Positions 47,491 through 63,829 of a DNA stretch of 64,000 nucleotides are shown here, one piece after another. The translations under genes and the position numbers were made by a program. The stretch comes from Candidatus Bathyarchaeia archaeon (lineage in GTDB: Archaea; Thermoproteota; Bathyarchaeia; Bathyarchaeales; Bathycorpusculaceae): contig JBEKOM010000003.1 of assembly GCA_049521795.1 (NCBI GenBank), positions 1 through 64,000 of the forward strand. The letters are read 5' to 3'. The first letter of the stretch is position 1. Every line of letters begins with the position of its first letter. The notes under the pieces are model-generated. The model was not told the DNA's origin and did not search any database. It saw only the letters and a program-made list of their open reading frames with translations.

Positions 47491-47723
47491 TTCGACACCC
47501 AAGATGTAATTTGGCCTTGTTCGTCGAATTTCTTTGGGTTTGAGATAAAACCTTACCCTTTCTCTCTCTCCTTCTTTACTTCTATTACCTACTACTATCT
47601 TCTGTCAGACAGACAGGCAAACAGACAGACAAACACACATAGAACTACAGTCTGTGATTTTGCGGAAAAGTTATAGCTGAACCGAGGTAGACTACATTGT
47701 TTGGCAATTGATAGGTGTTATGG

Positions 47724-48179
47724 ATGGTTGGCATTTCAGAGATATCTACGGTAGTGGCAGCGGCAGGCGTGTTGATAGGTGTGGTTCTTACTGTCGTGGA
47801 GCTGAGAAATCTGGTCAAACAGAGAAAGACCGACCTAGTGACGAACTTGTATTCAATTTACTCCTCGGAAGGGTTTCAAAAAGAGTGGCACACGTTCATG
47901 ACAGAAGAACTTGGCAGCCTTAAGACGTATCAAGACAAGTTTGGTGTGGAGTTTCCGCCGTCCGCAGTATTCTTCAACGAAATAGGGATTCTTCTGGAAA
48001 AAGGACTGATTGATGTCAACTTGGTCAACAGTCTTTTCGGCGGCGTCATTCCGAGATATTGGAAGAAGTTCAAGCCTTTCCTCGAAACTTGCAGAAGGGA
48101 AATCAATCAACCGAAATTGGGTCGAGGACTAGAATATCTGGGCAACGAAATCCAGAAACTTCAATCCAAGAAGGGTTAG
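47724..48179 (+). CDS. DUF4760-like membrane-anchored protein (paralog 1)
   Basis: N-terminal TM (VAAAGVLIGVVLTVVELR), RKTDLV, FFNEIGILL..GLID, EYL. SD AGGTG. Confidence 0.75.
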   Translation: MVGISEISTVVAAAGVLIGVVLTVVELRNLVKQRKTDLVTNLYSIYSSEGFQKEWHTFMTEELGSLKTYQDKFGVEFPPSAVFFNEIGILLEKGLIDVNLVNSLFGGVIPRYWKKFKPFLETCRREINQPKLGRGLEYLGNEIQKLQSKKG

Positions 48180-48180
48180 A

Positions 48181-48636
48181 ATGGTTGACGTAACAGAGAT
48201 TTCAGCTATTGTTGCGGCTGCAGGTGTGTTAGTAGGTGTTGTCTTGACGGTTCTTGAGATCAGAAATCTAGTCAGGCAGAGACAGACAGACCTTATAATG
48301 AAACTCTACTCGGATTTCGACAATATCGAATTCCAGAAGGTATGGAGGGAGGTTTTGAACAGAGAGGCCAAGGATAGTCTTGATTATGAGAAAAAATATG
48401 GCTTGGCTGAATTTACCGCGGTTGGCATGTTCTTTGAAGGAATCGGTATTCTTCTTAAAAGAAAACTCATAGACATAGACCTAGTCGACGACATGTTCAC
48501 GACTCCTATCAAATGGACATGGGAAAAGATGAAAGATATAGTATTGGAAGCCAGAAAGGTCAGAAATCAACCAGAGATATTGGAGTGGTTTGAATACCTT
48601 TATAACGAAATGAAGAAAAGAGAACAACGACAGTAG
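48181..48636 (+). CDS. DUF4760-like membrane-anchored protein (paralog 2)
   Basis: Same family motifs, ending WFEYLYNEMKKREQ. Confidence 0.8.
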   Translation: MVDVTEISAIVAAAGVLVGVVLTVLEIRNLVRQRQTDLIMKLYSDFDNIEFQKVWREVLNREAKDSLDYEKKYGLAEFTAVGMFFEGIGILLKRKLIDIDLVDDMFTTPIKWTWEKMKDIVLEARKVRNQPEILEWFEYLYNEMKKREQRQ

Positions 48637-48707
48637 AGTCTTGTTCTACGGTTGAGATGAAACGCTGTCGCACTTTTGAACAAGTTAAAATAACGTTGGC
48701 AATTTGA

Positions 48708-48938
48708 ATGGGTTACAAGTGGCGTGGAACAAGTGGTCAGTTGAGACTGGTTGAATTGGAATGCAGACGTCTAGGAATACCAACTGGCGCGCGGGAAACG
48801 AGAAGGGTTTATGCTCGTGGAAGAGAGGTAGCTGCAAGTGTAGCTGTAACGTGGAGACATCAAACTGTAACTGTGAAGGGTGACTTTCAAGACCGTTACA
48901 GAGACCTTAAGACGGGTCGTTTCATCAGGGAGCCTTAG
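48708..48938 (+). CDS. Small basic hypothetical protein (ends RYRDLKTGRFI)
   Basis: 76-aa ORF with ATG about 20 bp after a TTAAAA box. Confidence 0.45.
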   Translation: MGYKWRGTSGQLRLVELECRRLGIPTGARETRRVYARGREVAASVAVTWRHQTVTVKGDFQDRYRDLKTGRFIREP

Positions 48939-49029
48939 AAAAACAGAATTCCGATGAACCGCTGACGTGTGCGATACGTTTGCTAGGCAAGTGCTGAATT
49001 TAGCGTAGCAAACGGGCGCAGACAATTTA

Positions 49030-49554
49030 TTATGGTTTCTTCTGGCTCTTTTTCACAAGGTGTTGGGCTATTGCTGACATGCTTAGGAGCCTGTAGTTTG
49101 TTTCGTCGTGCAGGTCGACTAGAAAGCTCTCAATGCTATCAACGTTGATGAAGGGAAGTTGTCTTGTCAGTCTCAAGGCTTCTACATAGGCTGAATAGTC
49201 TTCATAAAACGTTATGAAGAGCCTATTCTTGTTGCGGTTAATGCCGCTCACGGCCATTAAGGATGCGTGGGGATGCTTTTTTTCGACTTCAGCGGCCAAC
49301 TTTCTAATTTCTTTGAATCCTTCTTTGTAGGGCTGGTCACGAACTGCAATAGATGTGATCCCCATAATCTCGTAACCCAGCTTGCTGAAATCAGGTATTA
49401 TCGTGTATTCTTTAATATAGCCTTCTTTCTCCAGTTTCTTTATCGTTCTACTTATCGTGGGTTGAGAAACACCCAAGGCCTTAGCCAGTTCTCTGTCGCT
49501 TCTCCTGCAATTCTTCATAAGTTCAGATATCAATCTCAATTCGACATCTTTCAT
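49030..49554 (-). CDS. Lrp/AsnC-family transcriptional regulator
   Basis: LMKNCRRSDRELAKALGVSQPTISR...YTIIPDFSKLGYEI. Confidence 0.9.
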   Translation of the reverse strand: MKDVELRLISELMKNCRRSDRELAKALGVSQPTISRTIKKLEKEGYIKEYTIIPDFSKLGYEIMGITSIAVRDQPYKEGFKEIRKLAAEVEKKHPHASLMAVSGINRNKNRLFITFYEDYSAYVEALRLTRQLPFINVDSIESFLVDLHDETNYRLLSMSAIAQHLVKKSQKKP

Positions 49555-49797
49555 GACTCTCCTTGTTGATTGTGAAAGGATTTGAATCCATCGGTTGACG
49601 CCCGAAACTTAAGCGCGAGCTTCGGTGTTTGTGTGTGCGTGTGTGTGTTTTTTACTTGTTTGTTTTTTTAGAGAGAGTGAGTGAGAGAGTTAGAGAGAGG
49701 TAGTAGGAGAGAGAGAAAAAGATAAAACCTTACCCCAACCAACCCGATCTAAAAAGACGAGGAAAAAAGAATGGAACTGACAGAAGATGAGGTGATT

Positions 49798-50112
49798 CTA
49801 TTTGGCTTTTTTCAGCATTTTCAGAATTTCTTCGTTCTTGCTCACAATCTTTCTTTCCATTGTATTCCATGAGAGCCATGCCATAATGCACGGTTCCATT
49901 TGGAGTTTTTGCATGGCGTCAAGACTCCCTTCGAACACCATGTATATTATGTGTTCTGGGAAGTCAGTCCATGAGCCAAGTAGCTTTGTTCCATGTTTCT
50001 TCGTCAGGCTGTCCATTGTAGATAATAATTCCAAAGTGCTCTTTCGATGTTTCTCATGAAAAGCAGGGCAGTTGTCAGGAGTATGCCTACTTATCCACAT
50101 GAATACTGGCAT
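49798..50112 (-). CDS. Small ferredoxin-like-fold protein (GYD/DUF3303-like)
   Basis: MPVFMWISRHTPDNCP...LLGSW...EHIIYMVFEG. Start placed at ATG 50112. Confidence 0.65.
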   Translation of the reverse strand: MPVFMWISRHTPDNCPAFHEKHRKSTLELLSTMDSLTKKHGTKLLGSWTDFPEHIIYMVFEGSLDAMQKLQMEPCIMAWLSWNTMERKIVSKNEEILKMLKKAK

Positions 50113-50266
50113 AGTCCAACCTAATTCAGAACACTTTATAAATTTTACGGATGGTTTGGGTTCGCGCGCGCTAACCCAACGCACACTTTGCGCAGCTGGA
50201 AGAAGCTTTAGCAGATGATACAGTTAGGATTTTCTGCTTTTCATGGAAGTCTAGCGAGATTGCAAA

Positions 50267-50725
50267 GTGTTAAATGCGATATACACTGATGCTTTTCTGG
50301 GGGTGAGAAAGTTGGTTTTAGGGGAAAAACTGTGGGAGGAAAAGGGCAAAGTGGTAGCGATGTCAATCAAATCCGTAGGGCCTGAAGGTGTACACATGGA
50401 ACAGACTTTTACGAGCGTAGTGAAGGGTTTTGGCCGAGCCCCAAGCGGCACAAACATGGGAACATTAGACCTTGTCCAGGCTCCTGACGGAGGCTACAGC
50501 GGAAGCGGTCAAGGGATATTCACGTCCCAGGACGGGGATACCGTGATTTGGAAGATTCACTTCTTTGGTAAGATGGAAGCAGGCAAGAGCCGGGACTTTA
50601 ACGTCGCAAGGTTTTGGACTGCCTCTCAAAAGCTCGCTTGGATGAACGGGGCCATCGCTGCTATAGAAGGCACTGCTGACATGAAGACTATGGAGTTGAG
50701 CGGCACAGGTTACGAGTGGAAGTAG
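50267..50725 (+). CDS. Conserved archaeal hypothetical beta-barrel-like protein
   Basis: LGEKLWEEKGK...GQGIFTSQDGD...KLAWMN...YEWK. The true start is probably ~50312. Confidence 0.7.
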   Translation: MLNAIYTDAFLGVRKLVLGEKLWEEKGKVVAMSIKSVGPEGVHMEQTFTSVVKGFGRAPSGTNMGTLDLVQAPDGGYSGSGQGIFTSQDGDTVIWKIHFFGKMEAGKSRDFNVARFWTASQKLAWMNGAIAAIEGTADMKTMELSGTGYEWK

Positions 50726-51005
50726 GCGAGAATTGCGCTTGTCCACTTCCAATTGCCTTTCCTTTTTCATTTTGAGTTGTTCTAATAATTCAAGACAGAA
50801 GCGTCATGATAAATAACTTAACATCCATGGACCCTAATCGAACAGAATCACCCAACACACTCTTTTTCTTCCAGAAGAAGAGGAGGAGAAGAGGTAACGC
50901 CAAGTGTGCTCATAAGGAAGTCCAAGGGATTATTGGTAGCCGCAAAAAGACCGGAGACGCAACCTGTAAGGGTCTCGGGTTTTCAAGGGCGTGCGCACTG
51001 AGGAA

Positions 51006-51103
51006 TGGTGGGCCCGGGGCGATTTGAACACCCGACCAACAGGTCTCTCAACGCGATGAACATTTATGAGCCTGGCGCTCTAACCGGGCTGAGCTACGGG
51101 CCC
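51006..51103 (-). tRNA. tRNA-Ile2(CAT) with 20-nt intron at 37/38 (51045-51064), CCA encoded
   Basis: GGGCCCG acceptor stem (Ile-type rather than Met), CTCATA anticodon loop, canonical BHB (CTCA/TGAG helix), T-loop TTCAAAT. Confidence 0.88.
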
Positions 51104-51214
51104 AGACGTTGGTTTGATCCCTTTAGTATGCTGTTTCAGAGTCAATTTAAACGTTTTCCGCATCTGGGCCACTGTAATGAAAGCGCGGGCGTCACAGGCA
51201 GAACCAGCGTGTAA

Positions 51215-52117
51215 TCATGAATGACTGCAGGCTTTAGTGCGTTCGTAATGATACAGATACTCTTGTGCGTAACCCGCGTACTTGCCGAAGTACAGTCTTC
51301 CAAATAAGTTCAGCTGCCTGTATCCTGATTCGCTGAGGGATTTCTGACCTGAGATGGTGTCCACAAAATTGCTTGGAAAACTGCTAGCGTAATGCCTCAA
51401 AACTGCTCTTCTGATCCATACATCGACTGGAAAAGCATCGAGTTTTTCAAGGGAAAAAAGCAGGACACAGTCTGCCACCTTGGGGCCCACTCCTGGAAAT
51501 CTGAGCAATTCCTCTTTTGCTCGGTCATAAGCTGCCTTCTTTAATTGTTCCAGATCATAGGCGTTCTTGAAGATTTCCTTTGAGGTTTGTGAAACGTACT
51601 TCGCCCTGTAGCCAAGTTCACATTCTCTCAGACTATTCAGAGTTGCTTTGGCCAGTTTCATCGGGGTTGGAAACGTGAAGAAACTGTAACCGTCAAGAAC
51701 GACTTTTCTCCCGAATTTTCTGGAAAGATGCTGCAGCATCCGTTTTATTGCCGCAATATTCTTGTAGGTTGCGCAGATGTACGAGATGAGACATTCCCAT
51801 GGGTCTTGCCTGAGAATGCGAAGACCCTTGAACTCTTTAATCGCCTTCTCTATGTGCTTGTCTCTGTTGATTTGTGAAAAAATCTCTGGCAGGTCATCGT
51901 TCAACCCGAAGTATCTCTTGACGAAGGTTTCGCGTGCGTTTTCAAACTCCAGCTTGTCTCCGCTCTGTCGAACTTTGAAAACATCTTCTCCGACTGTGCC
52001 GTACCACCAAGCGCCCTGTTTTTCCCACGGGAACGTCTGTCCACAGCACAAAGTGAAGTTCAAGTCAAAAGGAAGCGGAAGATCCAGTTGAACCATGGTC
52101 GATCTCACGCTATTCAT
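51215..52117 (-). CDS. 8-oxoguanine DNA glycosylase (OGG1-like, HhH-GPD)
   Basis: GQTF.W, GLRILRQDPWECLISYI, LGYRAKY, GVGPKVADC, FPVDVW, YAGYAQEYL. Confidence 0.92.
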   Translation of the reverse strand: MNSVRSTMVQLDLPLPFDLNFTLCCGQTFPWEKQGAWWYGTVGEDVFKVRQSGDKLEFENARETFVKRYFGLNDDLPEIFSQINRDKHIEKAIKEFKGLRILRQDPWECLISYICATYKNIAAIKRMLQHLSRKFGRKVVLDGYSFFTFPTPMKLAKATLNSLRECELGYRAKYVSQTSKEIFKNAYDLEQLKKAAYDRAKEELLRFPGVGPKVADCVLLFSLEKLDAFPVDVWIRRAVLRHYASSFPSNFVDTISGQKSLSESGYRQLNLFGRLYFGKYAGYAQEYLYHYERTKACSHS

Positions 52118-52179
52118 TCTTCAAAGTAGTTTTAAACCCTTATTGATCAAGAATGCATGGAAAGCTGGCGACAGCGAGG

Positions 52180-54363
52180 TCACCTGAGGATTTCGTCCAC
52201 AAAAGCCCTCGGTTGAGGCACTTCAGCCGGCAAACCTCTTCGCACACGGAGCTGCTTGACCACTTCGGCCTCAAGCTTTTCAGACATTTTCTCCCAGTGG
52301 TTGAAGGTCAGCTGCAAAAAAACATGGCCGGAGGTTGCGGTCCGCATTTCTGCAGGGAGGCCGAAAGTCTGTGCGACTGGAACGTAGCCTGTTATGATTG
52401 CTGCCAGTCCTTTCTGCTCAGTGGCCTCTATTTTTCCGTGTCTGCGAGTTATTATCTTGGAGCACGCGCCAAGCCATTGCAACGGAACGGACACTTCGAC
52501 CTTGTAAATCGGCTCCAACAGTGTAGGGTTCCCTGTCAGCAACGAACCCAGAATCGCGCGGCTTATCGCCCGCATGACTTGGCTTGGTTCTCGATTTTCG
52601 GGATTTCTGTCAAACTTCACGTCCATAAGCTTGACTTTCACGCCTCTCAAAGGCTGTTCGCTAAGAGGCCCGGTTCTGCACGTCCAGATGAAACCTGACA
52701 CGACATCGTTCTTCACCTCCTGAAGATGCTCAGTGTGCTTGGTTGAATCTACTAGAATGTTGATGTGCTCGTCCACGGCCCAAATCTCTTCGTCCACATT
52801 TTTTGCAAGCTTGTCTTCACTGCGTGTTAGGCCCTTTTCTAGGATTGTTATCGTTTTCCTTTCAAGCGGCTCTGTCTGAACCCAGAACTCGTTAAGCTTG
52901 TTAGGACTCTTCGTCATCACGAGTGCTCCACTTTTGAGAACAGTTTCTCTGTACGCTGCAATCGGGCTGGTTGCATCAAGCTTGACGTCACCGATGTGCT
53001 TCTTCAAGAAGTTCATGGCAACGTCCAGGTGAAGCTCGCCCATTCCGCTGAGCAAGTGTTGGCCCGTTTCAGTGTCCACGGTTGCTACGAGGTTTGGGTC
53101 TTCAATCGAAAGTCTTTTCAGTCCCTCAAGAAGGCTTCCTAGGTCTTTAGGGTTCTTCGGTTCTACCGCTATGGTCATAACGGGCTCTGACTCGCGGAGG
53201 GCATTCTCAAACGGAATGCAGATGCTCTTGTGTTCAGCATCGACGACCGTTTCCCCGGCCCTTGCTGATTCAAGTCCTGTCAACGCTGCAATGTTGCCAG
53301 CAGAAATGTGGCTCACAGCTTCCCTGAAAGCACTCATGTAAAGGGAAACGCTTTGCACGCAGTGGTCTTTGCCTGCGCTAACCAAGTGAACATTGTCGCC
53401 TTTTTCCACAGATCCCGAGAAGATCCGTCCAGTGGCAACCAAACCCTCGTTCTGAACTATCTGAGCCGCAGTTATGTCTATCACCGTTGGCCCTTGGTCG
53501 TCGCAGTTCACCATTGCCTGACCGATCTCCGACGTCAAACTGCCCTTCCAGATCTTTGGAACGCGGTATCGTTGGCTTTCTACAGGGCTTGGCAGGTTCT
53601 TCACGACCATGTCAAGTATTGCGGTGTGAAGAGGAACAACCTGCGAGAGTTCCTGCCATGCTTCATGCTCATAGGCGTCCGTGAAGTCACCATCACTGAA
53701 CCTCATGCCTTTCTTCTCAGCTATTTCCAAGGTGAATCCCCACCTGTGTAGCGCTGAACCGAAGACGACGCTCTGTTTTGAAGGGTCAACTTTCCAGTTC
53801 TCCTTGAACCTTGGCTCACAATAAATCTCGATGATGTTGTTGAAATCCGTGATAATTCGGACAAACTTTTTCTGAATCGCATCGGGGGAAAGCTTCAGCT
53901 CCCTTATCAGACGGTCAACCTTATTTATGAAAAGAACAGGTCTCACCCTCTCCTCAAGAGCCTGACGCGTGACAGTTTCCGTCTGAGCCATCACCTCTTC
54001 AACGGCGTCCACAACGACGATCGCACCGTCAACCGCGCGCAAAGCCCTCGTCACTTTACCAGTGAAGTCCACGTGCCCAGGAGTGTCCACCAAGTTTATC
54101 AGATAAGGAGACCCGTCCACTTCATGCAGAAACGAAATGTTTGCCGTCTTAATCGTGATGCCGCGTCTTTGCTCTTCTTCCAAATAGTCCAGAACTCTTG
54201 CTGAACCTGCTACGCGTGACGGCAGAAGTCCCGCTTCGACCAGCAGCGAATCGGTCATCGTTGTCTTCCCATGATCGATGTGGGCCACCACGCAGACGTT
54301 GCGAATACGCTCTTTCTTGCCCATCAACCTCAGCAACTCTGCCGTCTGCCGAAACTTTGGCAC
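52180..54363 (-). CDS. Elongation factor 2 paralog (aEF-2p type, lacks diphthamide His)
   Basis: AHIDHGKTT, RGITI, DTPGHVDF, NKVD and GMGELHL present. The domain IV loop reads DRNPENREPSQV instead of HEDxxHRGPAQ. Confidence 0.88.
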   Translation of the reverse strand: MPKFRQTAELLRLMGKKERIRNVCVVAHIDHGKTTMTDSLLVEAGLLPSRVAGSARVLDYLEEEQRRGITIKTANISFLHEVDGSPYLINLVDTPGHVDFTGKVTRALRAVDGAIVVVDAVEEVMAQTETVTRQALEERVRPVLFINKVDRLIRELKLSPDAIQKKFVRIITDFNNIIEIYCEPRFKENWKVDPSKQSVVFGSALHRWGFTLEIAEKKGMRFSDGDFTDAYEHEAWQELSQVVPLHTAILDMVVKNLPSPVESQRYRVPKIWKGSLTSEIGQAMVNCDDQGPTVIDITAAQIVQNEGLVATGRIFSGSVEKGDNVHLVSAGKDHCVQSVSLYMSAFREAVSHISAGNIAALTGLESARAGETVVDAEHKSICIPFENALRESEPVMTIAVEPKNPKDLGSLLEGLKRLSIEDPNLVATVDTETGQHLLSGMGELHLDVAMNFLKKHIGDVKLDATSPIAAYRETVLKSGALVMTKSPNKLNEFWVQTEPLERKTITILEKGLTRSEDKLAKNVDEEIWAVDEHINILVDSTKHTEHLQEVKNDVVSGFIWTCRTGPLSEQPLRGVKVKLMDVKFDRNPENREPSQVMRAISRAILGSLLTGNPTLLEPIYKVEVSVPLQWLGACSKIITRRHGKIEATEQKGLAAIITGYVPVAQTFGLPAEMRTATSGHVFLQLTFNHWEKMSEKLEAEVVKQLRVRRGLPAEVPQPRAFVDEILR

Positions 54364-55070: not shown

Positions 55071-55149
55071 CCGCAACACTGCAAATTGCAAAATGGAAAT
55101 TCTAGATAGTGCGCGCTCGGCTAAAGGTTATGAAAATCTCGTAAGCACG

Positions 55150-56960: not shown

Positions 56961-57467
56961 CTATTTTGCATCTGCCAGATATTTCAGGTGAAATGGTTTT
57001 CTAATAGTTCTTTGGTTAATGTCTGAAATGAAGCTTTGGCTTTCGATCAATACGTCTGAAAACTCGCTGTCGTGCTTTCTCATGAACTCTGCAAAGTCTG
57101 AATAGCTCTTGTGGAATGAAACAAAGATGCCATCCCATCCCATTCCTTGCCCTTCTATGGCTAAGATAACGTTTGGTTGTTTCATCATCCACTCTTCCAC
57201 CTTCCTGAAGGATTTATCCCTCACTTCGGGCGTGGCATACTTGATCTTGTGCTTTACAAAGCTGAACGCAACAAGTTCATAACCGGCTTTTTCCCATTTT
57301 GGTATCGCCGTATATCCATCAATGAAGTCCTTTTCAAGGGCTATCCTTCTCCTGCTGACAGTAGGTTGCGACACACCCAGAGTCCTGGCTAGCTCTCTGT
57401 CACTCCTGCGACTATTCTTCATCAGCTCATGCAGAAGTTTGTAGTCGATAGTTTTCATTTTCTCCAT
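56961..57467 (-). CDS. Lrp/AsnC-family transcriptional regulator, paralog of 49030-49554
   Basis: LMKNSRRSDRELARTLGVSQPTVSR...YTAIP...GYEL. Confidence 0.9.
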   Translation of the reverse strand: MEKMKTIDYKLLHELMKNSRRSDRELARTLGVSQPTVSRRRIALEKDFIDGYTAIPKWEKAGYELVAFSFVKHKIKYATPEVRDKSFRKVEEWMMKQPNVILAIEGQGMGWDGIFVSFHKSYSDFAEFMRKHDSEFSDVLIESQSFISDINQRTIRKPFHLKYLADAK

Positions 57468-57585
57468 ATCACATCATTGATTAGTTCTTTTTGGAGTTCT
57501 TATGACTTGTGGAAGAAATCCTATGCATACAATAGTCCAAGATACGGTGAAAAACTTCCAGAGGGTCTCTGAAATCTTTGTAGCT

Positions 57586-58077
57586 TTAGGCTTTTGATTG
57601 CTGAAGCTTCTGTTCTTTCTTCTTCATTTCATTGTATAGGTATTCAAACCACTCAAAGAATTCTGGGTTGTGATATTCCTTTCTCATACCTTCAGCGAGA
57701 GGCTTCATCTTCTCCCACATTATGTCTATGGGAAAAAGTTGACTAATCAGAGAAGCGTCTATGAGCCCATTTCTGAAGAGAACCCCAATTTGCTCAAAGA
57801 AGTTGCCCATCATCATGAACGACATGGGAACCTGGTTTCTAGACATGGGTTTTCCATACCTTTTTACAAAATCGTCGTAGTCTTTGAACTCAACTTCGAA
57901 GATATCCACAAATGCTTCTAAGAATTCTTTGTTTGTGGAGATATCATAGGAGAGTCTGGTTACAAGGTCTGTTTGTCTCTGCCTTACCAGATGTCTAAGT
58001 TCCTGAACAGTCAGAACAACACCTACCAGCACGCCTGCTGCTGCAACCATTGCTGAAATCTCTGTAATGTCAACCAT
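57586..58077 (-). CDS. DUF4760-like membrane-anchored protein (paralog 3)
   Basis: MVDITEISAMVAAAGVLVGVVLTV..RQRQTDLV...WFEYLYNEMKK. Confidence 0.8.
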   Translation of the reverse strand: MVDITEISAMVAAAGVLVGVVLTVQELRHLVRQRQTDLVTRLSYDISTNKEFLEAFVDIFEVEFKDYDDFVKRYGKPMSRNQVPMSFMMMGNFFEQIGVLFRNGLIDASLISQLFPIDIMWEKMKPLAEGMRKEYHNPEFFEWFEYLYNEMKKKEQKLQQSKA

Positions 58078-58564
58078 TCTTCACACCTTTTTGCTGGAGT
58101 CGCTGTTCTCTTTTCCTCATTTCATTGTAGAGATATTCGATGTGTTCAGCATATTGTGGATAGTTGAACTTTTTCCTAGTGTCTTCTGCTATTGGTTTCA
58201 GTTTTTCCCAGAACCATTTGCTTGGTCCAGTGAAGAGGTCGTCAACCAGCCTTATGTCTATTAGTTTATTCTTTAAGAGAACACCTAATGCTTCAAAGAG
58301 GTAAGTAGACTCAGGCGTAGGATTAGAACGAATATTATATTTCTTAACAAAGTCGTTGTAGTCTTTGTAGTCGCCCTTGATGAATTCAGTCCAATGTTCT
58401 TGGAACTCATTACTGCCAAAAGTGGCATATAACCTCAGGACAAGGTCTGTCTCTCTTGTTCTAGCTTGGTGACGAATATCTAGAATGTAGTAGACAACAC
58501 CCATAATGACGCCTGCAGAAGCAATAGCTACAGAAATAGTCTGAACATCAACCACTATTGACAC
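58070..58564 (-). CDS. DUF4760-like membrane-anchored protein (paralog 4)
   Basis: SVAIASAGV..GVVYY..RETDLVLRLY...EYLYNEMRKREQ. Overlaps the paralog 3 start. Confidence 0.8.
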   Translation of the reverse strand: MSIVVDVQTISVAIASAGVIMGVVYYILDIRHQARTRETDLVLRLYATFGSNEFQEHWTEFIKGDYKDYNDFVKKYNIRSNPTPESTYLFEALGVLLKNKLIDIRLVDDLFTGPSKWFWEKLKPIAEDTRKKFNYPQYAEHIEYLYNEMRKREQRLQQKGVKNG

Positions 58565-58697
58565 CCAGAAGACAAGATTAGCCGAGATCAGTATTAAAGA
58601 CTACATCATATAGAGAACGACATAGAAAAGAAGCTTCCAGTTGTCATTCAGAAAAGACAATAAAAGAAAGTGATGGTCTGATATGCTTTTGCTGTTC

Positions 58698-59168
58698 TTA
58701 ACTCTTCTTTGGCTTTTTCAGCATTGAGCCAGCATACAGCCCGATGAAAGTCAATACCAAGATCAGTACGACATTCAGAACGACGTAGGTCATTAGTGCC
58801 AATTGTCCATAAACGTACCAATCCGTTTTTGTCCACGCACCCGTAGCGTACATACTCTTTAGGGTTTCATCAATCCAATCTTTGTAATAGGGATTGGCAG
58901 CAGCACTTATCATCACATAAAAAGCCACGACCCATGCGGACAAAACAGATATTTTACCGACTGCTCTAATTCTGGATTCTTCTTGTATCTTTCCAGCAAG
59001 AACGTAGCCTACAACTAATGCGGCGATTAGCATGGATATGATTCCAGCAGAATTCATTCCCCAATAAGAGCTTATGGACGGAATCAAAGCTGCACCTAAG
59101 ACAAACCAAATCATAACATCAATCACATCTATAGAAGCCACAGCTAGAATTACGTCACCAAATTTCAA
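58698..59168 (-). CDS. Hypothetical membrane protein (4 TM)
   Basis: SD GGAGGTGA before TTG 59168. Hydrophobic segments. Confidence 0.7.
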   Translation of the reverse strand: MKFGDVILAVASIDVIDVMIWFVLGAALIPSISSYWGMNSAGIISMLIAALVVGYVLAGKIQEESRIRAVGKISVLSAWVVAFYVMISAAANPYYKDWIDETLKSMYATGAWTKTDWYVYGQLALMTYVVLNVVLILVLTFIGLYAGSMLKKPKKS

Positions 59169-59253
59169 CCTATCACCTCCCTTGAAGCCAAAAACACATG
59201 TGTGTTCTCGGTTCACCTATAAGGTTTACGAAAAACCTAAAAACTGATCATCT

Positions 59254-59793
59254 TCAAACGGTTCTTGTCAGTATTTGTGGTTCTTTCCATTCATCCCTGA
59301 GGATGCTGAACATGACGGTGTCTCTCCATTCTCCATTACTGAAAAATCGTTTTCGCATTATCCCTTCTTTTTGGAAACCTGAATTCTCTAGAACCTTTTG
59401 TGAGGCAACATTTCCAACATCTGTCGTGGCTTGAATGCAAGCTATGTCTTTTGAGAGAAACAAGTAATCCACCATCATCTTTGTAGCTTCGGTGCAGTAG
59501 CCTTTTCCTCTTTCGCTTGGAAGTAATGCATATCCTATTTCCTGCATTTTCGTATAGGGTGCAAGCATGTTGAAGTGTGCTATGCCACCGATTTTGGTTC
59601 CGTCTTTCTTCTCAATAATGAATTGTCTATATTCCAAGGGATTGGTTTCAAAAGTCTTCTCCATGTCTGTCTTGGTTCTCTGTATTGGAGAGAAATATTC
59701 ACCCCAGAACTCGGGGTTGTTCATCCATTCCGCAATCAGAGGCAAGTCCTCCTTTTCCACAACCCTCAGATTCACACTCTTGCCTTCAAGCAA
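59254..59793 (-). CDS. GNAT N-acetyltransferase (RimJ/RimL family)
   Basis: EIGY...ERGKGYCTEA, NVASQKVLE..GFQKEG..R, GEWRD. Confidence 0.92.
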   Translation of the reverse strand: MLEGKSVNLRVVEKEDLPLIAEWMNNPEFWGEYFSPIQRTKTDMEKTFETNPLEYRQFIIEKKDGTKIGGIAHFNMLAPYTKMQEIGYALLPSERGKGYCTEATKMMVDYLFLSKDIACIQATTDVGNVASQKVLENSGFQKEGIMRKRFFSNGEWRDTVMFSILRDEWKEPQILTRTV

Positions 59794-59887
59794 TCTGTAT
59801 CACCACATGTTTCATCGAATGTTTTCAGCTCTTATGGTTTGTGATTGACCACTCTAAGCTTAGAGCAACCGTACTACGATGAAAAAC

Positions 59888-60637
59888 CTACAGAGCCCCA
59901 GAAATCTTTGGTTGTCTCTTTTCATAGACTATGACTGCTAGTAGTGTTGCTATCATAAAGAACGGCAGAATAAGGAAAGTTGGGAATTCTGGCACAACAT
60001 TACTCCAATGAATTGTCAGTTTGGGAGAATAATCTGTAAGATTAATTGGAGCTTCTTTAGATTCGAACGAAACCAAAGAATTCTGAATAGATGGTTCCCG
60101 TAAAACTACTGTTACTGCTTCAGCATTGCTGTTCAAAGCATTCTTGACAGCATCAACTGTGCTCCAATTATACCATTGATTATTGACCGTAACCAATACT
60201 GAGTCCATTGACGTTGTGTTGTAACTGGGCATATTGGAATATGTCAATGAAGACTCAGTCCACGAATAATTAGTGCAAAAATGAGCATGAACATCGTTTG
60301 TTCCATAAACGTTAGATGGATACAACTGAAGTGTAGCCACGTCAATCACAGCCCCTTTAGGAACAGAAGACAACTCGAATTTCAGCCATACTACCTCTTC
60401 AACTTCAGAAAATTGACCTCCATAGTAATGATACTCATTTAATGTTTCAAGTATGGTTTCTCCACCAAAGGTCAATGTTTGAAAACTTGAATCAACGAAT
60501 GTATCATCTGATGGCTTGAGTGTTACCTGTCCAGCCTGAGCATTAACTGTCTCGATACTTAGAGAAAAAACCAAGACTAGACTTAAAACTAGGGCAATGA
60601 CAATTTCTCTGAAAATATCGATTCTCTTTTCACTCAT
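59888..60637 (-). CDS. DNRLRE/CBM96-like domain surface protein with PEF-CTERM signal
   Basis: Signal peptide, DDTFVD...WLKF.LS..P...I..ATLQLY...WTESSLTY...FESKE...PKLTI, then VVPEFP + TM + basic tail. Confidence 0.82.
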   Translation of the reverse strand: MSEKRIDIFREIVIALVLSLVLVFSLSIETVNAQAGQVTLKPSDDTFVDSSFQTLTFGGETILETLNEYHYYGGQFSEVEEVVWLKFELSSVPKGAVIDVATLQLYPSNVYGTNDVHAHFCTNYSWTESSLTYSNMPSYNTTSMDSVLVTVNNQWYNWSTVDAVKNALNSNAEAVTVVLREPSIQNSLVSFESKEAPINLTDYSPKLTIHWSNVVPEFPTFLILPFFMIATLLAVIVYEKRQPKISGAL

Positions 60638-60873
60638 TCTTGAACCTCTAGTTCGTCTTCTGTTGTCGTGTAGCCTTAAGATTTCTGTCTTTTGGTGTCT
60701 GGCTAGGGAATAATATTGCATTTTGTCTAATGCCTTTTCCCTTGTTTATCGAAAACTCATCTTTCTCAAGAGTGTCCTGGACACCTCTGCCAATGTAAAG
60801 AAGATTGACCCAATTGACCCAAAGAACATTGACCTAAAACTCTTAAATAACAGCTCCTCAAGTGAAAATACGA

Positions 60874-60951
60874 GGGCCGGTAGTCTAGCTCGGTTAGGAC
60901 ATCTGCTTGACGTGCAGAAGGTCGCCGGTTCGAGTCCGGTCCGGCCCACCA
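60874..60951 (+). tRNA. tRNA-Val(GAC), intronless, CCA encoded
   Basis: GGGCCGG acceptor, TCTGC-TTGACGT-GCAGA anticodon arm, TTCGAGT T-loop. TTAAATA box about 30 bp upstream. Confidence 0.95.
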
Positions 60952-61199
60952 AGAACCTTTTCTATCGAAGGAAGCTTCTAACGGGCATTTTGCATGAATT
61001 CGAACATCGTGTGCTAAGGGCAGAATTCGCGTTAAGTTCAAATATTAGCTTTCAGGTTGAATGACTGTATTCCTATCGAACGGTTGAGGGCGGCAAATAG
61101 TGATCAAGAATGGTTTGAGGGTTGATTCTTGCATTCGATTGTTTTGTTGTTTCTTGGTATTTGCCATCAAGGAGTTCCTTGCCCGCTAGGTGTTTGAAA

Positions 61200-61460
61200 A
61201 TGGCTGAAGAACGCTCGCAGGAGAGTGGAAGAACCCGAATCCGGCTTGGCTATTTGGGAACGTTGATGGTGCTTCTCATAACCGCGATGGCTGGAACTGG
61301 GTTTATGATTGGTCTGCTGCTTCTGGTGTGGGAATTGATCGGAGGCATTTTGTCTGGATTTCTATTGTTCGTCACAGGGTTCTCAGGTCTAGTGACCCTA
61401 ATAGGAATCGTCATTCTAGGACTCTCAAGAGAGCAAGTTTCCGTAGACGAATCAAACTAA
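61200..61460 (+). CDS. Small hypothetical membrane protein
   Basis: Two long hydrophobic segments. ATG at 61200. Confidence 0.55.
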   Translation: MAEERSQESGRTRIRLGYLGTLMVLLITAMAGTGFMIGLLLLVWELIGGILSGFLLFVTGFSGLVTLIGIVILGLSREQVSVDESN

Positions 61461-61578
61461 TCCTCAACGCTGACTCTGGCCAGTTTAATGTGTGTTCAAG
61501 CCTTTCTGCCAAAAAGACCTGAAGGTTGCAAGCTTAATTAACGACTTTTGCATGTCAGAATCTTGAGGGTTTGAGACT

Positions 61579-62475
61579 ATGCCTAGACTTGTGTTGGATG
61601 GGATTTTTGTGCCTCACGTGACACCTTTCAAGCGTGGAGGTCAACTCGACATCAATGCACTGAGGGAATGTGTCAGGTTTTGGATGAAAAGCGGGGTTTC
61701 AGGGTTAGTCCCTTGTGGAAGCAACGGCGAAGCTCCTTACCTTTCTAGGCAAGAAAGAAAGAAGGTCATTGAAACCGTTCTGGATGAGGTCAACGGAAAG
61801 GTTCCGGTGGTCGCGGGAACAGGTAGCATGAGCACGCAGGAAACTGTCGCGTTTACAAAGGATGCGGCTGAGTTGGGCGTGGATGCTGCTCTAATAGTGA
61901 CACCCTTCTATTTCAGACTCACAAGCAGAGAAATCTATGAACACTACAGGACAGTGTGCCAAGCCGTGGACCTTCCGATCGTTGTCTACAACGTTCCAAA
62001 GTTCACAGGCTTCTCTCTGGAACCATCTTCCATTGAGAGACTGGCGTCTGAAAATCAGAGCATAATAGGGTTGAAGGAAAGCAGCGGGAGCTTCGGTACG
62101 ATAAGCGAGGTCATAAGATTGCTTGGCAACAGGCTTTCAGTCCTGGCTGGCACAGCAGACGTTGCGCTTCCAACACTTCAAGCTGGAGGCAGAGGCGCGG
62201 TGATAGCGGTTGCGAACGTGTTCCCAACATTGTGCAGTCGTTTGTACAGGGCTTATAAAAAAGGCCAATACGAAGAGGCAAGTAGACTGCAAAACCGAAT
62301 ATCGTTTGCAAACGAGGTGCTCGTCAAAAGGTTCAATCAACTCTCAGCCATCAAAGAAGGGATGAGACTGGAAGGACTGCCAGGGGGTTACCCTCGCAAA
62401 CCAGCGTTGCCACTGGATGAAAAAGAAAGAAAAACCCTTGAAGACCTGCTGAAGAAAATAGAGGAACCTGTCTAG
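61579..62475 (+). CDS. DapA/NanA-family class I aldolase (DHDPS or HOGA-like)
   Basis: VTPF, GSNGE, VYNVP, GLKESSG (Schiff-base Lys). Confidence 0.9.
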   Translation: MPRLVLDGIFVPHVTPFKRGGQLDINALRECVRFWMKSGVSGLVPCGSNGEAPYLSRQERKKVIETVLDEVNGKVPVVAGTGSMSTQETVAFTKDAAELGVDAALIVTPFYFRLTSREIYEHYRTVCQAVDLPIVVYNVPKFTGFSLEPSSIERLASENQSIIGLKESSGSFGTISEVIRLLGNRLSVLAGTADVALPTLQAGGRGAVIAVANVFPTLCSRLYRAYKKGQYEEASRLQNRISFANEVLVKRFNQLSAIKEGMRLEGLPGGYPRKPALPLDEKERKTLEDLLKKIEEPV

Positions 62476-62548
62476 GCGACGACGTTCACCAAAACAGATA
62501 AGAACTCGTGCATGAACCAACACTGCATCAAACAGGAAGTGAACAGCG

Positions 62549-62743
62549 GTGCCTGCTGAAATCGTTGATGCCGACCGATTCGTCACTATAAGCGAGCGTG
62601 CAGACTACTGTGCCGTCAAGAGACTGAAAGAGGTTGTGAAGCTGAAGCTTCGCACGCCGAGCAGACTTTACACGTTGAAAGTTGAGCCGCTGAAAGCTGA
62701 AGAAATAATCAAGAAGCTCCAATGCGAAATCCGCGAGGTATAG
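62549..62743 (+). CDS. rpl38e: 50S ribosomal protein L38e (eL38)
   Basis: MPxEI...F...VKLKLRT.SRLYTLKV..KAEEI matches the eL38 pattern (VKFKVRCSRYLYTL). Confidence 0.8.
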   Translation: MPAEIVDADRFVTISERADYCAVKRLKEVVKLKLRTPSRLYTLKVEPLKAEEIIKKLQCEIREV

Positions 62744-63122
62744 GGACATTTTGAAGAAATTCTCATACGTTTTCTAACCCATTTCCCATGATAGACTAAT
62801 CCATCTGTGCTGTCCACCCAATCAAATTCGACTTTGGCCAGTTTCTTCAGTTCACTCCTCGACTGTGCAGCTCTGTCACAGAAAGTGACGCGCAAATCAG
62901 TACGTAGAGATAGGCTCTATGCACGCGTTGAATAGTGGATTAATCTATTTCGCTATATTAGAACCAACGTTTTCTTTTGGGTTTGGGATAAAACTTTACC
63001 CTTTTTCTTCTTCTCTCTCTACCCTCTCTCCTACTAACCCTCTCTCTACAAACACACGCACACACAAACACACACAGACAGAAACAGGGAGAAGGCACAC
63101 AGAGATAGGAAACTGCCGCGCG

Positions 63123-63296
63123 TTATTTCTTTGATTTTCTGGCTAGTTCGAATTCGCGGTCTTTCTTCAAATAGGCGATGCAGTACTCAATGGCATGGCT
63201 CATTGAGGCGAATGTTCTCTCGTCAGAATCAACTTGACGCTTCAACCAGTCGTAAAGTTCCTGATCTATGCTGATCGCAATCTTCTTTTTCGGCAT
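63123..63296 (-). CDS. Ribbon-helix-helix DNA-binding protein (57 aa; below ORF-track cutoff)
   Basis: MPKKKIAISIDQELYDWLKRQVDSDERTFASMSHAIEYCIAYLKK..., a classic RHH pattern. Confidence 0.75.
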   Translation of the reverse strand: MPKKKIAISIDQELYDWLKRQVDSDERTFASMSHAIEYCIAYLKKDREFELARKSKK

Positions 63297-63382
63297 CTAA
63301 CGGTCATTCCGCAATATCCTAGCTATGCTCACTTAAATGTTTATACTACTCAATCAGACTGTTTAGTCGAAAGAATTAAATA

Positions 63383-63402
63383 GTATGACTAGGTATGACT
63401 AG
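63383..63402. promoter_or_regulatory. Tandem GTATGACTAG x2, candidate RHH operator
   Basis: Exact 10-bp tandem repeat beside a TTAAATA box, in the region upstream of the RHH gene. Confidence 0.35.
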
Positions 63403-63829
63403 TATTGTCGCCTGTGAGTGCGCAAATCAGTATCCGCTGCAGCTCTCCCCTGAGCACAAAGACTCATCTTGTGGGCTCACAGACGATTCATACTAATCAG
63501 GTGAAAAGCATGCAAAAGGTGAAGACTGTCCCGAAGAAATGTCGCGACTGCAAGATCAGCAGCAGCCAATATTGTATCACCATGTGCCCAGAAAACAGGT
63601 GGGTACACCACATATAAACGGCGCGCCGTACTCAAATGGAGCCACACGTACCTTACAACGTCACAATGGTATCGTAGCGCGCGCTAATAGACTTCCGTTT
63701 TTTTTGTTTTTGTTTGAGTGCGTCAGTTAGAAAATGAGAGAGAGAAAGGCTAAACTTTACCCCCAAACGCAAACTTCTGCGGGCGTTTACCGAAACCCAA
63801 GATTGGGATAGTAGATTGAGAAGGGCAGA

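Follow-up and report, generated by a model that had tools for sequence, protein, structure and literature searches.

Two gene blocks and the sites around them

The window, a 64,000-nucleotide stretch of contig C3 from a Bathyarchaeia genome (here G000), contains two small gene blocks, each lying between two copies of a related short core with characteristic flanks (Table 1). The sites described in the initial annotation are real: A, B and D lie exactly where it had placed them, and C begins at 62986, one base before the 62987 given there. All four cores read on the + strand and are thus in direct orientation, with C-poor DNA to the left and G-poor DNA to the right. The flanks are of the reported types, GGGTTTG-type on the left and CCAAC/CCAAAC-type on the right, and the long inner arms run as described from CT-rich to CA-rich sequence. 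The 13-mer TAAAACYTTACCC matches the window three times with at most one mismatch, always on the + strand, against a shuffle expectation of 0.15; three or more matches were seen in 0 of 100 shuffles.

Table 1. Positions of sites, arms and genes in the two blocks
Feature	Position	Strand	Description
Site A, short outer (left) arm	47533..47542	+	TTTGGGTTTG type, C-free
Site A, core	47543..47558	+	AGATAAAACCTTACCC; two differences from consensus, both also in B
Site A, long inner arm	47559..47639	+	CT-rich, then TAC-rich, then CA/GACA-rich; G-poor, low complexity
BRE/TATA-like element	47662..47687	+	GCGGAAAAGTTATAGCTGAACCGAGG; separate, directly upstream of first DUF4760 gene
A/B cargo gene 1	47724..48179	+	DUF4760 protein, 151 aa
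A/B cargo gene 2	48181..48636	+	Paralogous DUF4760 protein, 151 aa
A/B cargo gene 3	49030..49554	-	Lrp/AsnC-type winged-HTH regulator, 174 aa
Site B, long inner arm	49624..49719	-	On -, CT-rich, then A-rich, then CA-rich
Site B, core	49720..49735	+	Same as A
Site B, short outer (right) arm	49736..49745	+	CAACCAACCC; G-free
Site C, short outer arm	62975..62985	+	TTTTGGGTTTG; kept in G001
Site C, core	62986..63001	+	Exact family consensus GGATAAAACTTTACCC
Site C, long inner arm	63002..63080	+	CT-rich, then CA-rich
C/D cargo, 57-aa ORF	63123..63296	-	No known family
Site D, inner arm	63698..63747	-	On -, CT-rich, then A/C-rich
Site D, core	63748..63762	+	15-nt variant GGCTAAACTTTACCC; one-base deletion
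Site D, short outer arm	63763..63774	+	CCAAACGCAAAC

The proposal that each pair has its own core variant holds for A and B, which are the same 16-mer (direct repeat D5 in the repeat listing) with the changes G1A and T10C; among the 43 genomic copies with up to two mismatches, T10C occurs in these two only. It fails for C and D: the supposed variant is the family consensus itself, and D differs from C by one missing A and an A3>C change. Likewise, the inverted inner arms are measurable for A/B (17 nt, 94% complementary), a pair that does resemble a duplicated core with inverted inner ends, but the arms of C/D are alike in composition only, and an inverted-repeat search recovered no inverted pair of 12 nt or longer between them. 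The G-poor segment at site A spans 47545-47603. The ATG of cargo gene 1 lies 165 nt past core A, and that of cargo gene 3 is 165 nt from core B. The arm of site C approaches the 57-aa ORF from its 3' side and does not lead to a gene start; this ORF matched no Pfam family at E 0.1 or less. The BRE/TATA-like element beyond arm A is found again at many loci and in many genomes, often 18-34 nt past a core, with 84-100% identity in the matching region (query 2449-2486). The long arm of site B is homologous to arms at C10:3604 and C7:71136 and at position 2261907 of G001, a relative with a complete single-contig genome.

A motif family in the genus and on viral contigs

Scanning the genome and 31 related genomes establishes that the four sites belong to a large family. 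Its core is the 16-bp near-palindrome GGATAAAACTTTACCC, in which the sequence-conserved part, as seen in the family logo, comprises 7-bp inverted halves around a 2-bp centre. It is flanked by about 11 C-poor bases on the left (positions -11 to -1 of the logo) and about 12 G-poor bases on the right, a flank sometimes extended on one or both sides by a low-complexity arm of 60-130 nt. The arms are themselves dispersed sequence families that adjoin cores. G000 has 15, 11, 17 and 27 copies at zero, one, two and three mismatches, respectively, i.e. 43 at up to two. The motif is present in all 10 other genomes of this genus of peat-dwelling archaea, with about 25-45 copies per genome; a reversed control pattern gave a single match over the 31 related genomes, as against 26 motif matches in G000 alone. 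Typical copies also occur on the viral contigs L052, L063, L070, L072, L049/L068 and L067, and the motif-bearing viral contigs encode the capsid, portal and tail-tube genes of head-tailed viruses. The 43 copies in G000, the presence in every congener and the viral copies refute a system private to the pairs.

Pairing, which had been taken as the rule, is not general: a large number of long-arm sites have no partner, and roughly half of all sites have two short arms. Sites of this short/short shape, predicted for an empty site, do exist, e.g. the G001 orthologue of C. The outer-short/inner-long geometry recurs at C7:31078/29028 in G000 and at 2258290/2261907 in G001, both arms are long at C10:3604 and C1:about 608986, and arm-only pairs of 320-470 bp without cargo are found at C1:487361/487835 and C3:185808/186128. 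The core is also seen inverted relative to the same flank. Direct orientation proves to be a regional tendency of the whole family and not a feature of pairs, as neighbouring copies share a strand in 44 of 69 cases (p 0.03). By our own count, 22 of the 25 G001 copies with at most one mismatch fit one chromosome-wide strand pattern, namely the - strand from about 2.29 Mb past position 0 up to 0.68 Mb, and the + strand between 0.86 and 2.29 Mb.

Homology junctions, turnover and promoter-likeness of the core

As had been proposed, members of the family border variable gene blocks whose cargo differs, and comparison of relatives shows that homology ends at them more often than at other intergenic gaps. 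Homology between G000 and G001 (88.7% over 1551 bp) stops at the last base of core C, and G002 lacks the entire stretch 62756-66018. Of the 31 G001 cores, eleven are no more than 25 nt away from where a homology block of at least 250 bp ends, compared with 17 of 136 core-free intergenic gaps from the same loci (Fisher p 0.006). The module from C1:552254 to C1:552663 is also present in G001, again between two cores, in an unrelated neighbourhood. Outside two cores, L063 and L070 from the viral set have 96-98% identity, and they differ only between these cores, where one has 314 nt and the other 2564 nt plus a third core; the breaks fall 1 nt past core 1 and 11 nt ahead of core 2, and L070 has two additional units behind the capsid gene. 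Among 81 metagenome cores, 16 pairs have a common left flank that reaches the core, only one of which also shares the right flank, and 3 pairs have only the right flank in common, the shared left flank being itself a repeated element of about 120 nt and hence not proof of allelic loci. Judged from these alignments, the flanks on the two sides of a core appear to assort independently. Two observations do not support the proposal of the initial annotation: homologues of the A/B cargo occur in relatives without cores within about 1.5 kb, and the cassette at 1681884 in G001 has a single core where G000 has none. Of 11 Lrp-type paralogues, 3-4 lie within 1 kb of a core, with no consistent link.

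Eleven orthologous core pairs of G000 and G001 differ on average by about 2.6 of 16 bases (our own count), two being degenerate and one inverted in place. The genes flanking them are 88-92% identical, and G000 nonetheless has 15 exact core copies. Decay of orthologues alongside persistent exact copies points to turnover, the pattern of a spreading repeat rather than of sites each held by selection.

When all 16-mers on C3 are scored with a promoter matrix trained on the upstream regions of 43 tRNA genes of this organism, five local cores come within the top 0.005-0.6% in the forward and the top 0.15-1% in the reverse direction, and the promoters of tRNA-Cys and tRNA-Gln look like core halves. 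The initial annotation had itself set ordinary promoter sequence against its proposal, and the core does fit the organism's own promoter consensus. It thus appears promoter-like, of the BRE/TATA type, in both directions, and since both orientations resemble the organism's own BRE/TATA, transcription probably also starts outward from it. At several sites a separate canonical promoter lies 18-34 nt beyond the core, so the core is not needed as the promoter of the gene. Gene orientation around cores is close to random, and about a fifth of the copies lie between convergent genes: 12 of 57 have no neighbouring gene directed away from the core (on a crude ORF map that misses small genes), the same share as that of convergent gaps (375/1813).

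Candidate explanations and comparison with known systems

At a probability of roughly 0.45 we favour a reading in which all four sites represent one lineage-wide boundary element, portable and promoter-like, where exchange of moron-like cassettes takes place. The element would mark the joint between independently assorting DNA modules. Small self-contained accessory units (here the two DUF4760 genes with the Lrp-type regulator, and the 57-aa ORF; on viral contigs Shedu-like, TIR-domain, methylase and regulator genes) would be acquired, lost and exchanged through recombination at the core or next to it, with fresh exact copies arising as old ones decay. The core would probably also start transcription outward into the G-poor arms, serving as a portable promoter-like linker. 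Recombination at the core, the enzyme responsible and transcriptional activity of the core are what we infer from these patterns. If correct, the blocks would be an archaeal counterpart of phage 'morons'. Counting against the boundary element, gene orientation around cores is near random and several genes have promoters of their own, a repeat of 16-40 bp is short for homologous recombination, the left flank shared among metagenome cores is itself repeated, the arm of site C runs into a gene 3' end, and the chromosome-wide polarity in G001 is not accounted for.

The junction and turnover data fit equally well a dedicated att/TSD mobility system that moves non-autonomous cassettes in trans, with the cores as its crossover or target sites, although we regard this as somewhat unlikely. 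The enzyme would be either a tyrosine recombinase, giving attL/attR sites with long element-side arms, or a transposase/casposase-like enzyme duplicating a 16-bp target. The identity of A and B, which share two rare changes that no other of the 43 copies combines, their inverted inner ends, and the recurrence of same-strand outer-short/inner-long pairs point this way; both-long and both-short sites are what attP-like and attB-like forms would give, and arms common to unrelated loci and species are expected of element-borne sequence. Conversely, many long arms are unpaired, the G001 cassette at 1681884 has one core, and the 7-bp halves with their 2-bp centre are smaller than the 11-bp arms and 6-bp spacer of Xer sites given in PMC2958812. 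As initially noted, the window has no recombinase (none of the genome's 10 PF00589 matches lies on C3); no tyrosine recombinase or Cas1, the candidates named there, is linked to the sites, nor is a Y1 or serine enzyme. One Xer-like gene (C1:609372-610328) ends 3 nt ahead of a core, and in G005 a gene of a second integrase type stops 58 nt short of one, but only one of nine full-length integrase genes in G000 has a core within 200 nt, and this Xer-like gene was not found in the 10 other congener genomes (E 1e-30 or better, with one of the two G000 Xer-like proteins as query). Two further integrase types, patchy and multi-copy across the order, occur in the motif-free genera g3, g5 and g6, and none was found in the motif-bearing g10. 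Cas1 is represented in G000 by just two short fragments, both outside cassettes, and searches for a Y1 (HUH) transposase in G000, and for TnpB or a serine recombinase, found none.

Quite unlikely, in our estimate, is a purely regulatory element, i.e. a core promoter working in both directions, an upstream activating site or an operator bound by a dimeric regulator, with the arms as leaders or nucleosome-free spacers and the module-edge position mirroring where gene units begin and end. BRE plus TATA have roughly the size of the core, which scores as a promoter both ways and at 7 of 81 metagenome sites precedes a canonical promoter by 18-34 nt; a canonical promoter also stands behind the long arm at site A. 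In L063 and L070 a Shine-Dalgarno sequence with an ATG comes 33 nt after a core, in G000 the left-hand gene is directed away from the core at 25 of 33 sites, and the arms A, B and E extend to where genes start, with equal spacing for A and B. However, G001 has no orientation bias (12/24 and 11/24), convergent contexts are at chance level, and orthologous sites decay about like their surroundings while exact copies remain numerous. The copying of arm sequences among unrelated loci, the enrichment of cores at homology breaks over other intergenic gaps and the inconsistent association with Lrp-type paralogues also argue against it. The G001 strand pattern could alternatively reflect a polar site linked to chromosome organisation or replication (fork-barrier-like, translocase-guiding or domain-boundary), the simple repeats and rearrangements at the flanks being side effects of stalling; this seems very improbable, and we know of no such system in archaea. 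One strand switch brackets the Orc1/Cdc6 gene at 692 kb, gene strand bias is absent or opposite in sampled regions (49% and 58% of coding bases on +), and both the strand sharing of neighbours and the inversion of the core against a constant flank are compatible with it. Yet only 11 of 13 loci agree once clusters within 50 kb are treated as single events, the choice of the second switch point followed inspection of the data, no flip accompanies the second Orc1/Cdc6 gene at 1.46 Mb, GC skew shows nothing in the sampled loci, and the element also occurs in viral genomes beside accessory genes.

Several known systems share features with the boundary element. As in integrons, small accessory genes (including defence genes on viral contigs) form blocks with a repeated site at their ends, cargo varies among close relatives and neighbouring sites are often co-oriented. 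The attC sites of integrons are structured palindromes of 55-140 nt that are recognised in folded single-stranded form and keep their shape rather than their sequence. Here, in contrast, only a 16-bp sequence is conserved and single-strand folding is weak: eight folds gave z +1.0 to -1.9 with no stable hairpin at cores, and the site B single strand gave no fold. There is also no adjacent integron integrase or attI-like platform, and the sites do not make up one array but are spread across the chromosome and viral contigs. Casposons, driven by Cas1 with a 14-15-bp target duplication and inverted ends, resemble the A/B arrangement; they are far larger than these cassettes, no Cas1 lies in or near the latter, and pairs other than A/B lack identical cores. 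REP/REPIN sequences with RAYT, and MITEs, are similarly short, dispersed, intergenic near-palindromes in tens of copies, kept by turnover and not by site-wise conservation, and the arm-only pairs recall them; unlike these, the copies here have neither a Y1 transposase in the genome nor a stable hairpin, bound gene-carrying blocks and occur in viruses too.

The pdif modules are bounded by oppositely oriented sites, whereas the pairs here are direct and the copies number 25-45. Xer/dif and pdif sites do share a near-palindrome with slightly different half-sites and an asymmetric centre, and delimit modules; Xer-like genes are present in G000, one adjoining a core, but were not found in congeners at the above threshold with the one query. 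According to PMC2958812, a chromosome has a single dif site, which consists of 11-bp arms around a 6-bp spacer and does not adjoin xerA. Reused or 'mobile' promoters and the promoter-carrying intergenic repeats of halovirus HF2 likewise place near-identical promoter-like sequence before unrelated genes (PMC3575422, PMC8707807); unlike those, as far as the available parts of these accounts describe them, the element is a near-palindrome with simple-sequence arms, lies in about a fifth of cases between convergent genes, and is found at homology breakpoints. Phage 'morons' and the linkers of mosaic phage genomes are close in that self-contained accessory units stand between conserved structural genes of head-tailed viruses, with a promoter-like element at the unit edge. 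To our knowledge bacterial morons have no shared boundary sequence, whereas here one exact 16-mer bounds units in viruses and host chromosomes across the genus.

A dispersed near-palindrome and its arms

The sites in the window belong to a family of elements that has spread into viral contigs, is placed at joints between modules and turns over. The source genome (G000; its contigs are written C1, C2 and so on) comprises 2.44 Mb in 69 contigs and is 98.75% complete; the window is C3:1-64000. Relatives recovered with its DapA carry the labels Bathyarchaeia or Bathyarchaeota, and the metagenomes with DNA matching this stretch derive from peat and soil. Each site consists of a 16-bp near-palindromic core with a left and a right arm. 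The four sites reported in the initial annotation (A-D) were recovered where it had placed them, all on the plus strand; a fifth, site E, has a long left arm that leads to the start of a 314-aa gene with its 3' end at 63830. The 13-mer form of the motif occurs three times in the window against 0.15 expected, a number reached in 0 of 100 shuffles. Read on plus, sites A-D invariably have G/T- or G/A-rich sequence on the left and C/A- or C/T-rich sequence on the right; the left arm is short and the right arm long at A and C, and the opposite holds at B and D. That each pair has its own core variant holds for A/B, where G1A and T10C occur jointly in no other of the 43 copies with at most two mismatches to the consensus core, and does not hold for C/D.

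In G000 there are 15, 11, 17 and 27 copies of the 16-mer at 0, 1, 2 and 3 mismatches, the good ones nearly all intergenic. The other 10 genomes of the genus all carry the motif, the near-complete ones at 20-40 copies, and 1-6 copies occur in a few other genera among the 31 genomes scanned, across which a reversed control pattern gave a single match. The sites thus form a family and are no private system of two pairs. Sites inside an ORF number 10 of 43 in G000 and 7 of 31 in the single-contig relative G001; some of these ORFs are spurious, being read from the arms.

A logo of 85 distinct sites shows 16 conserved positions, with sequence conservation limited to 7-bp inverted halves around a 2-bp center. 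For the 11-12 bases that follow on either side, composition alone is conserved, the left being G/T-rich (C-poor from -11 to -1) and the right C/A-rich (G-poor from +17 to +28). Among 43 G- or C-depleted segments of G000, 14 abut a core with at most two mismatches and several further ones abut degenerate cores, the remainder resembling coding or unrelated sequence. The long low-complexity arms adjoin cores and form sequence families common to unrelated loci: the arm of B resembles those at C10:3604, C7:71136 and G001:2261907, that at C1:487361 those at C3:184327 and C1:608987, and that at C9:1516 the one at C2:9485. Long arms are often closed by GCGCGC(GC), in the window for instance at 63113-63122, 63676-63685 and 56914-56921. 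This sequence is strongly concentrated between genes (of 361 octamers, 250 fall in the non-coding 14% of G000) and enriched 0-30 nt past gene ends, and it may be a 3'-end signal. A separate non-coding element, also dispersed (GCGTATACTCGATTCCGAT ... CCCTATTATGAC), precedes several cores on their left side at a distance of 150-190 nt; on the viral contig L072 the arrangement of its two parts differs.

Features of the window and of related loci (positions without contig refer to the window; C, contigs of G000; L072, viral contig; L101-L164, metagenome loci)
Feature	Position	Strand	Remarks
Site A core	47543-47558	+	16-mer identical to B
Site B core	49720-49735	+	16-mer identical to A
Site C core	62986-63001	+	GGATAAAACTTTACCC
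Site D core	63748-63762	+	one A missing, A3>C
Site E	C3:64926		just beyond the window; long left arm
DUF4760 gene 1, A/B block	47724-48179	+	
DUF4760 gene 2, A/B block	48181-48636	+	paralogous
Lrp/AsnC-type regulator, A/B block	49030-49554	-	convergent
57-aa ORF, C/D block	63123-63296	-	no known family
Lrp-type regulator, second cargo set	56961-57467	-	
DUF4760 genes, second cargo set	57586-58077, 58070-58564	-	
Cas1 fragments (PF01867)	C10:61693, C2:288413		open frames of 72 and 90 aa
GCGTATACTCGATTCCGAT ... CCCTATTATGAC element	C1:552300-552450, C3:166200-166330, C3:184400-184530, L072:2020-2100		G000 and viral
~120-nt element abutting core	L101, L102, L112, L139, L140, L164		six unrelated contexts

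The copies turn over. In 11 orthologous pairs of cores from G000 and G001 the mean difference by hand count is about 2.6 of 16 bases, and the flanking genes are 88-92% identical. Two of these pairs are barely recognizable, in one the core has the opposite orientation next to the same flank, and one has the same three departures from the consensus in both genomes. Such decay at orthologous positions indicates that single sites are not strongly conserved; about 15 exact copies are nevertheless kept per genome, and the combination is the pattern of a repeat that is still being copied or homogenized.

Cargo and module joints in hosts, metagenomes and viruses

The outer genes of the A/B block, the DNA between these two paired sites, both start 165 nt from their own core. 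A BRE/TATA-like element at 47662-47687 is the first DUF4760 gene's own promoter-like element; elements of this type (GCGGAAAAGTTATAGCTGAACCG) precede unrelated small genes at many loci, across genomes, and commonly lie 18-34 nt past a core (e.g. metagenome loci L102, L143, L148, L160, L161 and L172). In the C/D block the arm of site C leads into the 3' end of the 57-aa ORF, and the block otherwise has tiny ORFs; a first impression of this ORF as a ribbon-helix-helix protein was unsupported by Pfam. Searches of the cargo with PHROGs and PADLOC returned only generic HTH matches. The cargo set of A/B has a second copy at 56961-58564, 7 kb away, with edges free of cores. The cargo was also considered as a regulon, a reading rejected because cores are near no more than 3-4 of the 11 Lrp-type paralogues and 1 of the 4 further DUF4760 loci.

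Comparison of relatives places a share of the cores at the ends of homologous DNA. Homology between G000 and G001 (88.7% over 1551 bp) stops with the final base of core C and restarts at C3:65973, with 575 unrelated bp in between in G001, where the core at C has two short arms and other DNA past it. In a further relative, G002, all of 62756-66018 is missing and the place is without a core. Neither relative is syntenic with the window upstream of 50888, so that A/B lies in variable DNA. In G001, 11 of 31 cores lie no more than 25 nt from where a homology block of at least 250 bp with G000 ends; for the control, intergenic gaps of the same loci that lack a core, the figure is 17 of 136 (odds ratio 3.85, p 0.006). 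A 430-bp module lying between C1:552254 and C1:552663 is found again in G001, where cores at 394040 and 394455 bound it and the DNA on either side is unrelated. Elsewhere G001 contains a 305-bp unit with a core at its end; at the same place G000 is uninterrupted and without a core, and other species have still other content.

Among 81 metagenome sites with a common left arm and core, 16 pairs have the left flank in common up to the core, one of which also shares the right flank, and 3 pairs have only the right flank in common. This common flank, conserved and non-coding over about 120 nt, has no Rfam match or tRNA call and may be a small RNA gene; as the shared flank is itself an element of this kind, these pairs represent module reassortments and not proven alleles. 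Contigs of four peat runs placed on 46000-64000 break at the arms, and at their joints near cores the sides are only 20-33 nt and possibly come from other copies or organisms. One contig of run X1 is unchanged from C across D, and a 30-nt probe of the A flank plus core matched 0 metagenome contigs in a searched set that may leave out near-identical records.

Viral contigs bear the element with typical arms. The exact 16-mer occurs in 30 of them, most being chance or unrelated coding matches and about 8 having flanks of the family type. One of these contigs, L063, encodes an HK97-type capsid protein (PF25209) with homologues 83-86% identical at C6:1478 and C7:87986 of G000. Outside two cores L063 is 96-98% identical to L070; between them there are 314 nt in L063 versus 2564 nt and a third core in L070, the breaks falling 1 nt past the first core and 11 nt ahead of the second. 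The extra units of L070 encode a 188-aa protein and a MEDS/HTH regulator. In L049 a core separates a Shedu-like gene from a TIR-domain gene, in L072 a 402-aa gene lies between two cores beside a Shedu-like fragment and a DNA methylase, and in L052 a core lies past the tail-tube gene. L049 and L072 are contigs of head-tailed viruses of the Bathyarchaeia type, and their core regions (L049:8192-10681 and L072:2205-7285) hold Shedu-like (SduA_C), TIR-domain and Eco57I-type methylase genes.

Known systems and competing readings

We tentatively read the core as a portable, promoter-like element marking boundaries where moron-like accessory units are exchanged, with a probability of about 0.45. The initial annotation had proposed a dedicated system of cassettes mobilized in trans and bounded by paired direct cores of the att or target-site-duplication kind. 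Tyrosine-recombinase core sites have two inverted arms, each about 11-13 bp, that flank a 6-8-bp spacer, and the recombinase is encoded beside the site or in every site-bearing genome; their occupied and empty alleles differ by precisely the element, a single core staying behind. In G000 the end of a Xer-like gene (C1:609372-610328; NCBIfam XerA-type, below cut-off) precedes a long-armed core by 3 nt, and in another relative, G005, a different integrase ends 58 nt ahead of a core, its G000 orthologue being without one. Only 1 of 9 full-length integrase genes of G000 has a core within 200 nt, the Xer-like gene and its paralogue were not found in the other 10 genomes of the genus at E 1e-30 or better, and two integrase types are patchily distributed across the 31 genomes without tracking the motif; in these searches no recombinase co-occurred with the motif, and in this the core differs from att, dif and pdif sites. 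None of the 10 PF00589 matches of G000 is on C3, in agreement with the annotated absence of a recombinase from the window. The pdif modules have two sites in opposite orientation, whereas A/B, C/D, C7:31078/29028 and G001 2258290/2261907 are all same-strand pairs. Casposons carry a Cas1 (casposase) gene inside and have terminal inverted repeats and a target-site duplication; the blocks here lack Cas1, and Cas1, which had been suggested in solo form, is present in G000 only as two fragments, neither between paired cores. Of the inverted inner arms claimed for both pairs, those of A/B are real (17 nt, 94%) and, with the identical 16-mers, give this block casposon-like ends; C/D differs in its cores and has 0 inverted pairs of at least 12 nt, and the cores of the G001 pair differ at one base. 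Integron attC sites fold as single strands into hairpins, 55-140 nt long, in which the R''/L'' and L'/R' boxes pair. A hairpin of this kind was rejected, eight 54-nt DNA folds giving 0 to -7 kcal/mol (z +1.0 to -1.9), with none for site B and just -1.2 and -1.6 kcal/mol for site C. REP/REPIN sequences with RAYT need a Y1 HUH transposase, and IS200/IS605-type or serine-recombinase elements TnpB or a serine enzyme; G000 has 0 matches to PF01797 (Y1), PF07282 (TnpB) and PF00239 (serine resolvase/invertase). By the features testable, the element falls outside the dif/pdif, casposon, attC and REP/RAYT families, and we consider a dedicated att- or duplication-type system rather unlikely. Rather unlikely, too, is a previously undescribed cassette-exchange system common to Bathyarchaeia chromosomes and their head-tailed viruses, in which the asymmetric near-palindrome would be an enzyme's crossover or target site and the element-borne simple-sequence arms accessory DNA, the cargo would be regulators, small membrane proteins and defense genes, and insertion orientation would be tied to replication direction.

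The same core could be a purely regulatory site, and its likeness to promoters speaks to this reading as well as to that of a boundary element. A matrix trained on sequence upstream of 43 tRNA genes yields the consensus AAAAGCTTAAATAGCC, which is situated 17-45 nt ahead of the mature tRNA 5' end, in most cases 26-38 nt. Cores A-E score 2.9-7.9 forward and 2.3-4.6 reverse (mean training score ~5.8), ranking in the top 0.005-0.6% and 0.15-1%, respectively, of all C3 16-mers, and the tRNA-Cys and tRNA-Gln promoters resemble the two halves of the core. Judged by these scores, the core matches the organism's own BRE/TATA consensus; BRE plus TATA are about the same size as the core. As it is BRE/TATA-like in both readings, outward transcripts would be G-poor on either side. 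Speaking against a simple promoter role, several cores have a separate canonical promoter within 18-34 nt beyond. A BRE/TATA core promoter would also have a transcript start about 25 nt further on, or at the least the start of a gene. On a crude map of the longest non-overlapping ORFs of at least 70 aa, the left gene is directed away from the core in 25/33 cases in G000 and 12/24 in G001, and the right gene in 15/33 and 11/24. At least one neighbor is directed away in 45 of 57, which is not above chance, and neither in 12 of 57, the share of convergent gaps; the neighbors' orientation is thus close to random, and a purely regulatory site is in our view unlikely. A further reading is a replication- or chromosome-linked polar site. 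By hand count, 22 of 25 G001 copies with at most one mismatch fit a two-arm pattern, minus between ~2.29 and 0.68 Mb by way of the start and plus between 0.86 and 2.29 Mb, the first switch bracketing an Orc1/Cdc6 gene at 692 kb (692207; a second lies at 1456619). With clusters as single events the fit is 11/13, and the second switch point was picked after the fact, so that this chromosome-wide polarity is no more than suggestive. Neighboring copies within 20 kb in five genomes share a strand in 44 of 69 pairs, and neither a matching gene-strand bias in sampled G001 regions nor a GC-skew signal at 18 sampled G001 loci was found. We regard this last reading as very improbable. Given the two-arm pattern, the plus orientation of all four window sites is a regional property; cores in the syntenic G001 region are on plus as well.

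Significance and further observations

The element bears on how Bathyarchaeia and their viruses trade accessory genes. A true cassette-exchange system would parallel integrons or pdif modules in archaea and viruses and be built on sites of another architecture. A dedicated enzyme, if it exists, would define a new class of site-specific gene-shuffling system; if there is none, the element would be an unusually clean case of mosaic virus genomes arising by the long-proposed 'linker sequence' route. An exact 16-mer bounding exchanged blocks in hosts and viruses offers a concrete means of following the gain and loss of cassettes in metagenomes, a bait for the protein that reads it, be it a recombinase, a regulator or TBP/TFB, and a candidate portable promoter for later genetics in this lineage. 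Bathyarchaeia are abundant and, to our knowledge, have no cultured, genetically tractable members. Literature searches found no account of the element; the words 'promoter' and 'intergenic' have 0 occurrences in a paper on Bathyarchaeia viruses (PMC10848311), as has 'Bathyarchaeota' in an archaeal integron preprint.

Targeting of tRNA genes was rejected, only 2 of 44 sites being within 1.5 kb of one. Rfam detects three tRNAs only in the window, and one tRNA and nothing else near the cores of eight other loci. Two tRNA genes have introns, tRNA-Leu(GAG) at 51006-51103 (18 nt) and tRNA-Thr(UGU) at 55681-55814 (46 nt); Rfam detected both, and ARAGORN did so when run in intron mode but missed them in its default mode. 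Another tRNA-Leu lies 0.6 kb upstream of the Xer-like gene, and beyond the core of that gene three long arms and a degenerate two-armed core are packed within 480 bp (C1:608890-610328). Finally, 79-305 and 1706-2277 of the window match L063 (72-74% identity), contig C16 and a G001 segment beside a core; the contig probably begins at the edge of a provirus-like repeat where the assembly broke.
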